The position numbers were made by a program, and so were the translations under genes. 64,000 bases of DNA from positions 310,001 to 374,000 of the forward strand of contig JAYWIR010000001.1 in assembly GCA_036172245.1 (NCBI GenBank), in the 5' to 3' direction. The DNA comes from Raillietiella orientalis (taxonomy: Eukaryota). Below, piece after piece: positions 13,385-64,000 of this stretch. Below the pieces are notes generated by a model, which was given only the letters and a program-made list of their open reading frames with translations, had not been told where the DNA came from and searched no databases. Each line of letters opens with the position of its first letter. The stretch's first letter is position 1.

Positions 13385-13567
13385 GAACACTACGACTTCC
13401 TGGGCACCGATGAGGTCCACGGCGCCGTGCTGCTTTCCCTCAAGACCGAGGTCTTATCAGGTCAGGTATACATGAGAACGGTACTCCGCGTGAGTACGGG
13501 AACGGTCCACGAACTCATCCTTGCTGACAGCCTCGGAGAGACTCCCACTCCAGGAAAGATAGCACGG
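13385..13567 (+). CDS. RAP1GAP: Rap1GAP exon 3
   Basis: cccag acceptor, GTAAGG donor, phase 0/0. Encodes EHYDFLGTDEVHGAVLLSLKTE...TPTPGKIAR (dimerisation region). Confidence 0.92.
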
Positions 13568-16500
13568 GTAAGGCCAAGGTCCAGGATGCTGCCTGGTGTT
13601 TCTCGCGGGAGCTCGGCGCGCCCGTTTCCATGCCACGACGCGCGAGCAGTGGCTGCGCTCGCCTCGGCTAGTCTGGCAGGCTGCTGCGTCTTCCCTCCCC
13701 GCCCTTCTGCAGGCAGCTCCTTCGTCCAGGGAAGCAAGGGCGGAAGCGCGCGGGTCCCCGACCGCTTCCCTGCAGCATCCTCTCTCGGCAGGGGGGGGGG
13801 GGCCGCTGCGCCCTCTCCCCCCCCCTTCCAACTCCTTTTGCCGTGTTTCTCCGTTCCCGTTCGGCCACGCGTGTCTCGGCCCCCAGGCGGTTTTTACCCG
13901 CATCGAGCTGTGCGGCGGCGGCGCAGCAGCACTGCAATGGGCACGCCCACCCGTGCGAGTGCGTGGGCGTGCGTCTCGCGCAAAAGCCCTTCCCGTTCTT
14001 TCCCGCCCTCTCTCACCGCGGCTCCTCGCCCTCCTTGGGTGGGATTGACGGGGCTCGCGGACACTTCCGTCTTCGTCTCTCCTTCCCCCCCCCGAGACCG
14101 CTACAGGTGGCGCGCTCGTGGGCACTGTGGAGGGCGAAGCGGCGGCTTCCTCGCAGCCTTTCGCGCGGACGCCACTCCGCGGAGGTGTTCGTGCGCCCCC
14201 GGCCCGTCCGTTCATCGCCCGGATGCGCGCGCGAAAGAGGTCTGGTCACCTACCGCCTTCACGTCCGGAGCGGTCTCCAGGCGAAAGCTGGAGACCGATC
14301 GTCTGCCGATTCGTGCATCCCGCCGTGGACGCGAAAGTCCGGATTAGACAGCTGGCAGGCAGGTCCACGCGTGGGTCTCTCGCGGAGCCCGTGGAAACGG
14401 GAAAGGGGGGAAGAGGAACAAGAAGAAAAGAATTCCTTTTGCGGCGAGGGAGGCGCCTCTGCGGGACGGGGCTGCCGCGGCGTTCCTCGGGAGTGTTCGG
14501 GCGGAATCCTCCGGGCTTTATGGCTCCGTGGTGCTCGCGGCCTCACGGAAACGGATGTCTGTGAACTCGGTGGCCGTTGTATCCTCTTCCTCGTTGGCGG
14601 CAATTATGGCCGCCCCGCGTCATCGCGTTTTACTGCTCTCGTCTCACTCTTGTCGAAGCGGCGTGCCGTTCGCATGGAAAAAATCACGTTTCCGGGGAAA
14701 CGTCCGAGTGCCCGGAGCCTCGGCTGCTGCGAGCCGCGCCGGACCAGCACGGGCCCACCTTTCGCGCGCGCGTTTATCCTTCTTGCGAAATCTTCGGCCG
14801 GTGCTTTCTGGTGATGATAGTCGAATCTCCATTCGAATGGAAGCGTCGCGAATCGGAGGTGGAATCCCACGTCGCATGACCACGACCCTGACCTTTTGTG
14901 GACTGCTACGGTCCTTTGCGAAAGGCTTTTTCTTTTCTTTTCTTTGGATAAGTTTGAAAGTTGCCGCGCGCGACGGTTTGGGACCGCCGTAACGGCCGAG
15001 TTGGGGCCCCTGCAGCTGCCACGGTGCTCTCCCCGATTCTCACGCGCAGGGCAACGTTTCTGCCCTTTTAGGGATGAGCTTCGGCAGCGCTCGCTGCCCG
15101 CGCGGCAACGTGCGAGATCCCGTCCGCCTCTTCCCGTTGCTGCGCGACGGCTGGGGACCGCCGTAACCGCAGCGGCGTTCTGCTGGAACGCGTAGGACGG
15201 CGGCGGTGTTCTGCACCGTTGCTGCGGAGGGATGTTTGCGATAGACGCAGACACCGTTGTGGTCCAGGTGTTTGTCGTTCCAGCAGGCCGGGGTCGCAGT
15301 GCACTCCCGGAATTCATCGCCATGGCACCGGAATGGCTTTCGCCGCGCGCGGACCGAGAAACGAACACCTCCTTTCGGAACGCGAATTAATGGACTGCTC
15401 TCACACCGCTTCCCCCCCCCCCCCGGCCCGAAAATTACGCACTGATGAAACGCGTTCGTTAATTGAATTGATTACGTAGATAATGGCAAAATTCCTGCCC
15501 CGTACTCTTCGCGCGTAATTTGCAGGTTCTTGTGATGATTGCGTATTCAAATTGCCTTCGTGCCCCGGTTCACGTGCTGCTTGCATCCGAATGTCCTCTA
15601 AAAGGGCCCGGTGCTTCAGAGCAAACGTGGACGGCCCCACTGGGCGGAGTGGATGCTCGCGGAACGGCGACGCGCAGCATCAAAAGGGCCGAATGCGTTC
15701 GGTGTTTCATGCGCGGTGTTTCACGGTCGTTTCCTCTCGGGCGGGGTGCATCACCTCCGTGTTTCCAGCTGGGTCGTGTGTGCATTGCACATCGCTCACA
15801 TCTTGGATGCGCCTTCATCCTGCCCTTCCTTCTTTTGATAGGTATGTACGTGGCGTACAGCGCGTAGTATCTTTTTTTTTTTTTTTTTTTCTTTTTCTTT
15901 TGCGTGCTTCTTAAGCGGAAGTGCGAAGGGGTGTTGCCGAGTCGAGAGTCCTTCCTTTTGTGTGTTTCGGTTGCGTCTGTCGTGACACCGCGATGTTCGG
16001 AAGCGCTGCATCCCACGTGAAAATGGTAATGGTTTGGCTCAATTAGCTCAGGGCGGCATCTCATGACCTCTCAGCTCGAGTCTTTTGTGTAGGCGCCGTG
16101 TTGCCCCGGTGCGCATGGGCGGGGCGGCGTGTTGGGCTCACACCGCGACGTGTGGGTAACGAATCGAAAGAGAGGTAAGAAAGGACCGTGGATCGGGAGC
16201 TTTCAGGTTGCGGGGAGCTGCTGACCTGCATTCCGGATCGCCCGCCCCGTGGCTCAAACTCGGTTCCAGGGTCGCGAGCAGCGGCGGCGCTCTGCTTCGG
16301 TGCCGGGTCGCGCGCGCGAGACGTTTTCCCGAAGAGACACCCGTAGGACAGGCGAAGGACGCGGCGAGCATCCCTTCCACCCCCTCTCCCGTCTTCGCCG
16401 TTCCTTCGGGGTTCACTCGGTCTGGGGCTTCCTCGCGTTCGCTTCCTGGAAACGCGTCACCGCGGCTCAAGGATCCGTTGCTGGCCTGGGGGCATCTTCC

Positions 16501-60258: not shown

Positions 60259-60286
60259 ACGCTCCGATCTTAGCCAAAAGACCGAG
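60259..60286 (-). pseudogene. Second, more diverged U2 5' fragment (about nt 8-35)
   Basis: Minus strand reads CTCGGTCTTTTGGCTAAGATCGGAGCGT, with 20/21 identity to U2 nt 8-28. Confidence 0.65.
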
Positions 60287-61554
60287 GTTCCGTTGCAGGT
60301 TCCCTTCGGATGAGAAAGCATGTAACGGACTCCTTTGGAGGTCCCTCCGGAGAGAATAAGGTTGCTAGGTGGACTCATAGAACAAGTAAAGGAGGAGATC
60401 GCGCCGATATTCAGAGTCAGTTTCAGAAAGAAGCAACGGCCATCACCGCTGATCCCGATAGTCCACATTCTTCCTTGATTTATTTTAGTTTTCAGTTTCC
60501 CGAGCACACTCATTTCGGACTTCTCGAGTTTCGGAATGTTGCAGGAAAACTTCCACCCTGCCGGTTGGCTGCTGTCATTTCTTGCCACGAAGGTAGAGAG
60601 CTGCAGGGAGGGGTATGACGGCTATGTGGCACCACTGGTCCAATAATGCAGAAGATCTCCCATCGGTTTGCGAAGGAGACCCTGCAGAGGTGGCAGTTCC
60701 TTTGGGTTCAGTTCCAAAGTAGAAACCCAGTATTCCAGGCTCTTCTGCCATCCGACATTCCAGTCCATGAGGTGGCAGGAGATCCACGGATGGGCTAGCG
60801 GTAACGAAGATGGATGTCTCAAAGGGTAGACGAACTCAGTCCTCCGGCGTAGGTTGCGCGCCAACGGCGAAAAACGTCCTTCGCTGCCAACGTATCGCTG
60901 GGGGGATGGGACGTGCCGGAGCACACCACTGGGAGAACCACAATTTCCCACACAGGGAGATCACTCGGAGATGTACCGTGTCGTGGGAAGAGCTGATCAC
61001 CATCCTTCGTTTCCGCTGGCAAGCAAAAGTTCCGAAGAATTTTCGCCTCCGCTCCGGACATGGAATTCGAGCACCTGCGGTGACCTTCCTTCCGGTCCCA
61101 CTGCACAGCGCTCGCTTTGAAATAGCCTGTACAGAATTCCGAGTGCAAGAGGCGAAGCATTCGGTTCTCCTGGATACAGAATGATGCAGGCGGTCGCCCG
61201 GTACGCCTATCTCCCCAGCCAAAAGACACCAACCGCGTGTTGTTTCCACGCATGCAAGACGGAGAAAAAGGAGACAGGTGCGAGCACCGGATCCATCTTT
61301 ACCCTCTCAAGAATTAGTGAATTGCCCTTCTGCAATTTCAGCATCCTCGAAAAGTCGAGGAATGGAAAAAAACTGAGATCCTGATGAACAGGCACTCAGG
61401 AGGTCGGCATGGCAACTGCCCATTCGAATGGGTGATGATCGCGAGATCATCGTGGGAAGTGTTGGCGATTGCGCTGGTGCAGCACACAAGCCGAGGGAAA
61501 CTTCAGAGTGCGGAGAGGGTGCAAAATGTCGGCTTTTCCTTGCTGATGCTGCTG

Positions 61555-61591
61555 CTACACTTTGATCTTATCCAAAAGGCCGAGAAGCGAT
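61555..61591 (-). pseudogene. 3'-truncated U2 snRNA fragment (nt 1-37)
   Basis: Minus strand reads ATCGCTTCTCGGCCTTTTGGATAAGATCAAAGTGTAG, the metazoan U2 5' end with one mismatch. The rest of U2 is absent. Confidence 0.9.
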
Positions 61592-63289
61592 GCTGCTTGA
61601 TGGTCTTGTAGCGACTTCTTACTGCGACGACAAGAGTCTGTAGCGTTCGATGCCTCCAACGTGCACTGAGAAGTTCGATTTGCGAGCAGCGACATACCCA
61701 TGTGTAGGACAAGTTGGTCGAGGACGAGGACTAGTAACCTCCGGCGCAACATCTGGGAACTGTGAAAGAAGCTGTCGGCTCTCCAGTCACGAATAGGAAA
61801 AGGTGGCTTCCAGGATGGGATCGAGGCCACCACTCTTGCTCGAGCTGACAGTCGGATCGATAGTCCGAGTAGTCGTGCCTCTTTCGGAGGTTTTCAATCG
61901 TTGTTCCATTTTCTCTAAGCAGGTGACCTTGTCCACGAAAGGCAGTCGAGATCTGGAACTCAGTGCAAAGCAGGCACGAGATATAACTGTCCCCCGTGGA
62001 CGAGGAAACTCAGTTTTCCACTGACATGAGGATCCATTGTCTTTCTCTGGTGGGACGGCCGGAGGAAGGTTGTACTTTCCAGTTTCCTCGAACTCTTCCG
62101 GGGGGGGGGGGAGGTTTGACAGGATGTAACGTTCGCCATCTTCCTTCACTGTATCGCGGAAAACGAGCGAGAGCTCCGGAAGTCCGAATTCGAGAATTTG
62201 AGAGAGTTTTGTTGTTTACGAATATGCGGTTCTTGGAGAGAAATTCAACCATGAAACGTGAAAAGAATCGGTTTTTGCTTCTCACCCCTTATTCTTCCCT
62301 GTTCTTAGCCTCTTGGTTCCTTTGGCTTTTTCTTCATGCTTTTTCTTACTTTACCTTTCCTTTTTTCGCGGGTATTTTCAAGAGGTTTCGTATCTCCGTG
62401 CATGACTCGTGCGCGGACGGCAATGAGACTCGTGGTAACGCAGCCGGTTTGACAAGCAACCCTTTTCACATCTTGGCAAGCAGCTCTGAGGGAATGACAC
62501 CATTGCAATTGTGACACTTGTGATCCGCTTCTTTCGTACTGTTGCATGGCTTATTTTCTGTAAGATTCCTTCAGCCTTACAACGCGTTCCCATTGAAAAC
62601 CAACGTTCTCCAAACACGCCTGCCCGGGTTACCGCTTCAGGAAGAAATTTGAAACTGAATTTTACACGGGACGAAGGACGAAGTGCAACCACTTTCTTTC
62701 TTATGACAACATTGAATAGCGACCTTGAGTTACTACTGTAGGTAAGCATTGAAATTCCTTGTTCCTGCATCTGCTCATAGTCCACCGCAGAGTGTTGGTT
62801 CTCTTCATCAGGACGCAGGTGCTTCCCTGTTCATGCTGAAGACACGTTGACGATCTGATGACATCACAGGGTTGTCAGTGTTATTCTGCAGGTGAACCAC
62901 ATTGCAGTTTCGTACTCTCGTTGCACACCTTTGGTGCTCCCACTCTGAGCTCTCTCTCTGGGACTGGAACGAGGGCACAGTATTTCCGTTCCGATAATGA
63001 AGGTATAAAGAAATAAAATGGCTATTCTGGCCACAACGCGCACGAGTGGGCTCGATGAGAAGAAAGAAAACCAACTTTCCGTATAGATGTCTGCACGCCT
63101 TGAACAAGACAAGAAACCTGCCAAGGAAGTGATCTGGATCGCGTGAATCGCAAACAAGAAAAGGACTAGTTTTCTGTGGACTGTGGATCACCAACAGTTG
63201 CATCACGCACCGTCTTCGATCCTTGAAAAAGGCCTTTGTCGTTGGAAGGCAGAGACCACGGGCATTTGTGCTAAGATAGCGGACACGCT

Positions 63290-64000
63290 ACGGCGCACGG
63301 ATTGCAATCGACTGTTCAGCCCACAGTTTTGCCAGCAAATTGATGTCCGCATTGATAACGGTAACGGGACTTCGGCTGATAATATCCTCCAAGTCTCCTC
63401 TCTTGAGGAGAAAAAGCACATTAGCTGATCGGGATGAGGCAGGCACGTCGCCAGTAGCGAACCAGCGAGGATCAGTCTCCTGAATTAGAGAGGTTGAGCG
63501 CAACACCAAGGGGGTCGGTCCCGCAGCAAAGCACTTGTAAAACTCCGCAGGATAGCCACCCCCACTTTGTGCTCTCCGTCACTTAAGACTCCCGATGGCG
63601 GTGATTATCTCACACATAGTAAAAGGCTCGTCGAGGCTTCCCGTCTGTTTCTTCACTATCGCTGGAGCACCCTGTGGCGTCAAACGTCCTGAGATACGCC
63701 ATTTTCAAGAGACACTGGCATAAAGAGAGAAGCAAAATTTGCACCCATCTGCTAAGATTGAAACAGGAATGGATAAAAGATCTGCAATCCTATTCAAACA
63801 TTGTACGAAATCGATCACTGAAAATTTCCTTTGCAGCCATGGAAACACTGCAAGCAAAATACAGTATTTACTGCCGCTGGAGGGCTCAAGAAACGGTAGA
63901 TTTAACGGAAACATCGCTAAATGGGCAACCCTACGAGCGAAGTCGAAAGCAGCCCTGTTCCGATTGAACATCTGAAGTGGCTCCCGGTGCTGATGAACAC
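63290..64000 (-). mobile_element. Decayed L1/Tx1-type LINE ORF2, N-terminal RT region
   Basis: Minus translation SLDEPFTMCEIITAIGSLK*...GYPAEFYKCF...GDVPASSRSANVLFLLKRGDLEDIISRSPVTVINADINLLAK resembles the non-LTR RT PGPDG-PAEFYK / PKKGD-NYRPISLLN-DYKILAK pattern. Contains stops. Confidence 0.8.

Follow-up and report, generated by a model that had tools for sequence, protein, structure and literature searches.

A dead tailless U2 snRNA retrocopy in Raillietiella orientalis and the genome-wide family of U2 heads

The 64,000-nt stretch of the Raillietiella orientalis genome analyzed here (positions 310,001 to 374,000 of contig JAYWIR010000001.1; the window, in whose coordinates positions are given) contains a dead tailless retrocopy of the 5′ end of U2 snRNA, which is neither a Keno nor a Utopia insertion scar. 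Tailless U2 copies are already known in mammals; in this genome they break off with unusual sharpness where a resident U2-targeting element inserts. We consider it rather likely that this U2 "head" was made by target-primed reverse transcription, primed internally on an intact U2 RNA. As a single copy it is junk, and we propose no function for it. The genome assembly comprises 210 Mb in 491 contigs.

Results

The window head and its target-site duplication

The head covers nt 1–37 of the ~191-nt U2 and ends in GTGTAG. The Rfam U2 search of the window placed it at 61591–61555 with 31.5 bits (E 0.016), under the gathering score of 46, in agreement with an earlier note on this DNA that had read a minus-strand U2 fragment of this extent with one mismatch. 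Compared with the commonest head, the genome's own form, 36 of the 37 positions were identical, the sole mismatch being at nt 21. An extra A before GTGTAG, relative to the Rfam consensus, is the organism's own U2 form, because it is common to nearly all copies (A at nt 29–31 in 208–210 of 211). Neither a promoter or other U2-gene upstream sequence nor a U2 3′ part or A tail was found at the head. The features of the region are as follows.

61555..61591, minus strand: U2 snRNA nt 1–37 retrocopy (head) with a single mismatch, at nt 21 (61571)
61592..61597, minus strand: 5′ copy of the target-site duplication (TSD), AGCAGC; 61589–61597 under the 9-nt reading, in which U2 nt 1–3 form part of the repeat
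61545..61556, minus strand: 3′ copy of the TSD; 61556–61551 (6-nt reading) or 61553–61545 (9-nt reading)
60266..60286, minus strand: second, shorter U2-like piece, nt 8–28, 20/21 identical
60979..62248, no strand assigned: old unclassified dispersed repeat hosting the head; paralogues L033, L032 and L383
63312..63647, minus strand: decayed L1-group (APE-RT) reverse transcriptase (RT) fragment; tblastn E 7e-11, 29%; HMM iE 1e-13

The AGCAGC direct repeat reported earlier was recovered at 61597–61592 and 61556–61551, where it brackets U2 nt 1–35. An exact 9-nt reading, AGCAGCATC at 61597–61589 and 61553–61545, which takes in U2 nt 1–3, fits equally well and falls within a flanking-TSD range of 8–35 nt, the other reading being 6 nt long. 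Under the 6-nt reading the 3′ copy overlaps U2 nt 36–37, and this overlap would be the priming microhomology. A chance microsatellite repeat in a CAG-rich genome was rejected as the source of the repeat, as the window is not CAG-rich, with 86 AGCAGC in 64 kb. Paralogue L033 (74% identical) spans the site without the head, showing a 36-column gap there, and because of this empty site the direction of the event is read as insertion of the head. The divergence of L033 is too great for the empty site to choose between the two TSD lengths. The shorter piece at 60266–60286 is probably an older or 5′-truncated head.

DNA around the head

The host repeat showed no L1-group, Utopia or Pfam match in tblastn and profile searches, and paralogues L032 and L383 lack its middle segment. 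Four ORFs flanking the head matched no Pfam family, apart from one weak DUF (E 0.078). Profiles built from L1-group ORF2, both local and from databases, and from Utopia/R2-type proteins found nothing across the site, whether the head was present or removed. These results do not fit the earlier placement of the head in a decayed LINE with RT remnants running colinearly across it: the peptides YKTIK and EKPTFCTL/AIAN share one frame only while the head is present, not after its removal. The RT fragment at 63647–63312, with an L1-group match of E 4e-12 vs E 1.5 or worse for Utopia/R2, was the sole LINE RT relic found in 58–64 kb, and it lies 1.7 kb from the head without being joined to it. What the earlier note had favored, a tailless U2 retrocopy, was upheld by the TSDs, by flanks unrelated to one another, by the paralogous site that lacks the head and by the resemblance of the end points to those in human.

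Two other identities for the host were tried and dropped. A weak L1 C-terminus likeness at 61619–62185 (plus strand), with E about 1e-3 from hundreds of queries, was lost with profiles (iE 0.9). A Penelope-like host, suggested by eye from motifs, gave one unrelated phmmer match (E 5e-4) and empty atlas and homologue searches; it is also disfavored by the paralogues, which have stops in all frames and a missing middle segment. Some close matches of the host repeat family (60979–62248; L032, L033, L034, L383) lie near contig ends (C24, C30). Elsewhere in the window, a short exon-like stretch at about 13400–13600 (plus strand) may belong to a Rap GTPase-activating protein, which it resembles by eye. 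With 14 cuticle-protein (Chitin_bind_4) matches, the genome is very probably that of an arthropod.

A genome-wide family of U2 heads

A search with U2 nt 1–24 (at most 2 mismatches) returned 340 matches genome-wide and none for the reversed control, and U2 nt 19–34 matched exactly 271 times (146+125); the window head thus belongs to a family of at least 340 dispersed heads. From the matches listed (200 of the 271 exact ones and 100 of the 340), 217 distinct heads were read, of which only four, not including the window head, carried U2-gene upstream sequence. Statistics were computed on 211 copies, leaving out these four, L110 and one that failed the match filter. The last exact U2 base fell at nt 32, 33, 34, 35, 36, 37 and 38 in 9, 7, 69, 32, 27, 56 and 11 copies, respectively; no exact match ran past nt 38 (0/211). 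Two altered longer copies (L141, L036) were seen, and a pattern spanning nt 19–46 gave 15 matches, none of them an intact U2. The assembly yielded no intact U2 gene, a gap that unassembled arrays probably explain.

Exact TSDs of at least 7 nt flanked 50 of the 211 copies, vs 1.0 in shuffled pairs, leaving 161 without one; a looser rule (8–20 nt, at least 80% identity) gave 85/211 vs 9.5. The tabulation of 3′ break points and flanks proposed in the earlier note thus yielded exact U2 identity ending at nt 32–38 and downstream flanks unrelated to one another except in two pairs. These two pairs, among 217 flanks, were the only ones with a shared downstream start, and one of them was the two Utopia 5′ ends; a SINE with a U2 head (SINEU-like shared body and tail) was rejected on this count. 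Duplications by internal re-priming were not significant (8 vs a null of 4.75).

A U6 motif had 53 matches in the genome, about 26 of them truncated by our reading, with TSDs of 6–9 nt in 3 of 20 loci read, and a 5S search returned 36 matches. At L061:1490-1570 a U2 head stands beside a U6 head, with one repeat common to both. L317 has a 5S and a U2 head placed back to back, L364 a tandem pair of U2 heads with three repeat copies, and L066 two heads within an inverted duplication.

Utopia elements elsewhere in the genome

Utopia elements are U2-targeting non-LTR retrotransposons of the NeSL clade with a restriction-like endonuclease (RLE), according to the accessible part of Kojima and Jurka 2015 (PMC4640811). 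The second possibility raised in the earlier note, a relic of a U2-targeting Tx1 lineage, finds no support at the window locus: behind the head there is no element 5′ end, and the closest LINE relic is distant and of the L1 group. A U2-targeting lineage does exist in this genome, though at other loci, and it is Utopia, not Tx1, as placed by homologue taxon and domain pattern. Its elements encode a ZF-RT-ZF-RLE protein (zinc fingers, RT, RLE) and join U2 at nt 39–40 on their 3′ side, and the RT homologues come from spiders, beetles, turtles, nematodes and RNase H-bearing oomycete proteins, the Utopia pattern of taxa and domains as given in the accessible text of PMC4640811. At the window locus itself no RT and RLE joined to the head, and no U2 nt 39 onward at a 3′ end, were found.

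All four U2-promoter loci read were followed by Utopia-type sequence. Genome-wide, the Rfam U2 search gave 47 scoring sites, of which 30 were read (L001–L030, on 16 contigs). These 30 U2 3′ halves had upstream a Utopia C-terminal frame in 16 cases, an L1-group match in one (weak) and no match in 13, and in 28 of the 30 the U2 part began at nt 39–40 behind an A-rich tail. Such dispersed 3′ halves (nt 39–191), many with the gene's 3′ flank, lie behind Utopia tails and may be either old U2 loci or 3′ transductions. The best 30 RT loci in the genome all belonged to the L1 group. At L188:2953-4985 a U2 gene start is followed by an inverted RLE-type RT piece, like a 5′-inverted insertion. R2-like RT-RLE elements adjoin 28S rRNA sequence at L192 and L193 (C81), and young APE-RT L1-group elements form head-to-tail arrays with a common junction at L194–L197 (C150, C74, C71, C26).

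Among 213 dispersed heads, six cap Utopia sequence (L110, L101, L354, L282, L277, L042), and no clear L1-group element capped by a U2 head was seen. L101, L354, L282, L277 and L110 lie outside U2 genes, and two of these, L101 and L354, have a TSD and a 3′ flank resembling U2 nt 39 onward. At L042:1505-1632 a U2 head runs into a 5S rRNA fragment (Rfam 72 bits), which is followed by part of a Utopia C-terminus, making a three-part chimera. A candidate HDV-like ribozyme at a Utopia 5′ end (L113:331-395) starts 4 nt behind U2 nt 37. Its descriptor, set after seeing the sequence, matched L113 and was found in 0/3000 shuffles and 0/211 head flanks. The candidate was present in two copies only, L113 and L110 (G000 C482, C57), with no Rfam match and a z-score of -0.68 in a plain fold, which excludes pseudoknots. 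HDV-like ribozymes are known from R2, in the source material accessible to us, and no paper describing a Utopia ribozyme was found in the literature searched.

Priming and template of the heads

The TSDs and the U2 end of the heads overlap. Part of nt 33–37 was covered by 41 of the 50 exact TSDs, and because 22 of these 41 held a non-U2 base there, matching the upstream copy, the letters at nt 33–37 within the TSD are target-derived. U2 identity at nt 35, 36 and 37 was 64, 70 and 59%, and dropped at nt 38 to 27%, the background being 26% (T38 in 56/211). The 69 copies mismatching at nt 35 had A36 in 41 cases and G37 in 37.

Further downstream, nt 39–44 of the flanks matched U2 in register, and in register only (385 vs 321 ± 15, n=211), where the U2 reference from nt 38 on was the Rfam consensus and the genome's U2 3′ halves. 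After 14 special rows were left out (n=197) the match was 361 vs 299.6 ± 14.6 (0/5000 permutations), with U2 nt 39–44 at rank 2 among the 4096 hexamers and the U2-Utopia junction hexamer at rank 1958. The signal is small, about 30% vs 25% per base; it was weaker in a second batch (192 vs 166 ± 15; z about 1.7 vs 3.3), and the 37 copies whose TSD starts at or before nt 36 did not by themselves reach significance (68 vs 57 ± 6.5). It starts exactly at the Utopia 3′ junction and could reflect endonuclease preference instead of RNA pairing.

We suggest that the RT of a non-LTR retrotransposon would meet a DNA nick whose 3′ end pairs loosely with nt 33–44 of intact U2 RNA, best at A36–G37 in the branch-site recognition region. 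The enzyme would copy back to the U2 RNA 5′ end by target-primed reverse transcription, and a second nick 6–14 nt away would create the duplication. Because the flank faintly matches U2 nt 39–44 in register and not the U2-Utopia junction, intact U2, primed internally, is the most likely template. We infer an RNA route, internal priming and an exposure of the branch-site recognition region of U2. This sequence is partly displayed in a U2 loop, as described in the accessible part of PMC13019295, and by our own mapping from that part the published toehold includes U38. Since U38 lies in the toehold and yet shows no enrichment, loop display would explain the cliff at nt 38 only in part.

Alternative templates and enzymes

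Candidates for the enzyme are an L1-group element, to which we give slightly better than an even chance; Utopia, which is appreciably less likely; and, improbably, some other enzyme. If Utopia made the heads, it would nick fuzzy U2-like sites, the freed primer would pair with U2 RNA, and the RT would copy U2 instead of its own RNA. This is the same product class as internally primed U2 copying with a specific enzyme named, and the two readings overlap; we regard it as unlikely, but as the strongest competitor. Utopia is present and U2-targeted, as at all four U2-promoter loci, and it lies behind six heads, two of them with a TSD and a U2-like flank, where the L1 group has no clear counterpart. 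The sharp head end and the lack of a TT/AAAA site also point this way, and crocodilian off-target Utopia sites, in the accessible part of the PMC4640811 supplement, are U2-like on both sides of the junction, as the sites here faintly are. However, of 46 exact TSDs 35 begin no later than nt 36, which places them upstream of Utopia's own junction (nt 38–40); the nick lies ~4 nt upstream of that junction, and arthropod Utopia is reported without a TSD in the accessible text of PMC4640811. The capped copies can also arise from co-transcripts of U2 genes holding a truncated Utopia, and U6 fragments with TSDs occur as well (3/20 loci read). Human copies, in a species from which Utopia is not reported, show the same bias toward U2 and the same main end point, so that neither needs Utopia. 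We put forward only tentatively that Utopia reverse-transcribes its own target's RNA, its primers being complementary to U2 around nt 33–44, that it thereby scatters hundreds of U2 heads that end at its insertion point and caps its truncated copies, and that the candidate ribozyme behind nt 37 frees full-length Utopia RNA from the transcript of the U2 promoter.

The template might instead have been a pre-cut U2 5′ fragment, released from a U2-Utopia co-transcript by an HDV-like ribozyme or cut at nt 37 by a nuclease. The drop in identity between G37 (59%) and T38 (27%) would suit such a fragment, as would the candidate ribozyme 4 nt behind nt 37 in L113 and an excess of AA at nt 38–39 after full TGTAG (14/67 vs 5.2), as a short tail would give. 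The in-register match at nt 39–44, however, needs intact U2 or U2-like sites, and the leftover predicted from a co-transcript is absent: T38 (56/211) and C39 (54/211) are both at background, and the junction hexamer ranks low. These counts also disfavor the ribozyme product as template, and the ribozyme itself is known from two copies with no Rfam match and a plain-fold z-score of -0.68. We consider a pre-cut template improbable. Still less probable, to the point of being hardly tenable, is that the head was once the 5′ part of a U2 gene that Keno or Utopia had split, with the element since decayed. The end point does coincide with the Utopia/Keno site, and true U2 loci here consist of a head and an element; but the window head has no U2 promoter before it and no element sequence behind it, and the TSD directly around it and the empty paralogue already contradict this reading. 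Internal priming on intact U2 remains our preferred account.

Discussion

Tailless retropseudogenes were reportedly treated by Schmitz in 2004, a work known to us through its citation by Noll et al. The accessible parts of Noll et al. 2015 (PMC5322556), who screened 12 vertebrates and 3 plants, put the human tailless copies at 666 for U2, 143 for U6 and 13 for U1. The same screen turned up 8 in maize and not one in platypus or chicken. The heads resemble this mammalian type, as described there, in being 5′-complete (nt 1–37, against a threshold of at least 30 nt) and 3′-truncated by at least 10 nt near the branch-site region. They also share the TSD, the absence of an A tail (none in the window copy, with a slight AA excess in the family), complementarity between the target and the RNA where the copy breaks off, and U2 being far commoner than U6. 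Our hand count of the first 27 human rows of the supplement gave 17 copies of 33–39 nt, 8 of them of 35 nt, and 8 of at least 40 nt; in contrast, no clean copy here exceeds 38 nt. The host here is an arthropod with a resident U2-targeting element in the same genome, and the TT/AAAA target (TT/WAAAAWW consensus) of the mammalian copies was absent from the site logo of the 50 TSD copies. The TSD-filtered density, a rough figure from a different pipeline, is about 580 per Gb here vs 233 in human and 338 in dog according to the same source. The mammalian type is made by L1 ORF2p; L1-group elements are abundant here, and the enzyme is not assignable from sequence.

The likeness to Utopia, as far as PMC4640811 is accessible, lies in elements found elsewhere in this genome, with zinc fingers, RT and RLE, a 3′ junction at nt 39–40 and variable 5′ junctions at nt 33–38. 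The window copy, in contrast, has no Utopia sequence, and the heads have 6–17 nt TSDs starting upstream of the Utopia junction. With Keno (Tx1 clade, APE) and the crocodilian SINEU and Tx1 elements in the accessible part of Kojima 2015 (PMC4494074), the heads share U2 5′ sequence moved by non-LTR machinery in a genome rich in young APE-RT elements. Unlike SINEU, they have no common body behind them and are not a SINE. In the partial sample read, an L1-group match lay upstream of just one of the 30 U2 3′ halves, weakly, no U2 3′ part was found beside six L1-group 3′ ends, and the Keno arrangement, an APE-RT element followed by U2 nt 38–39 onward, was not recognized in this sample.

The heads extend tailless U2 retrocopies to an arthropod, for which no earlier report was found in the open-access literature, and their modest importance lies in the family. 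The choice between pre-cut RNA and internal priming was settled only "by default" in the accessible text of Noll et al. (PMC5322556); the faint in-register match at nt 39–44 speaks positively for intact U2 or for sites resembling it. Should Utopia prove to be the enzyme, the heads would exemplify an off-target product of retrotransposons that insert site-specifically, which are now being engineered to insert genes, and the same would be predicted for R2 and 28S rRNA. As fossils, the heads would then allow off-target Utopia activity to be counted.
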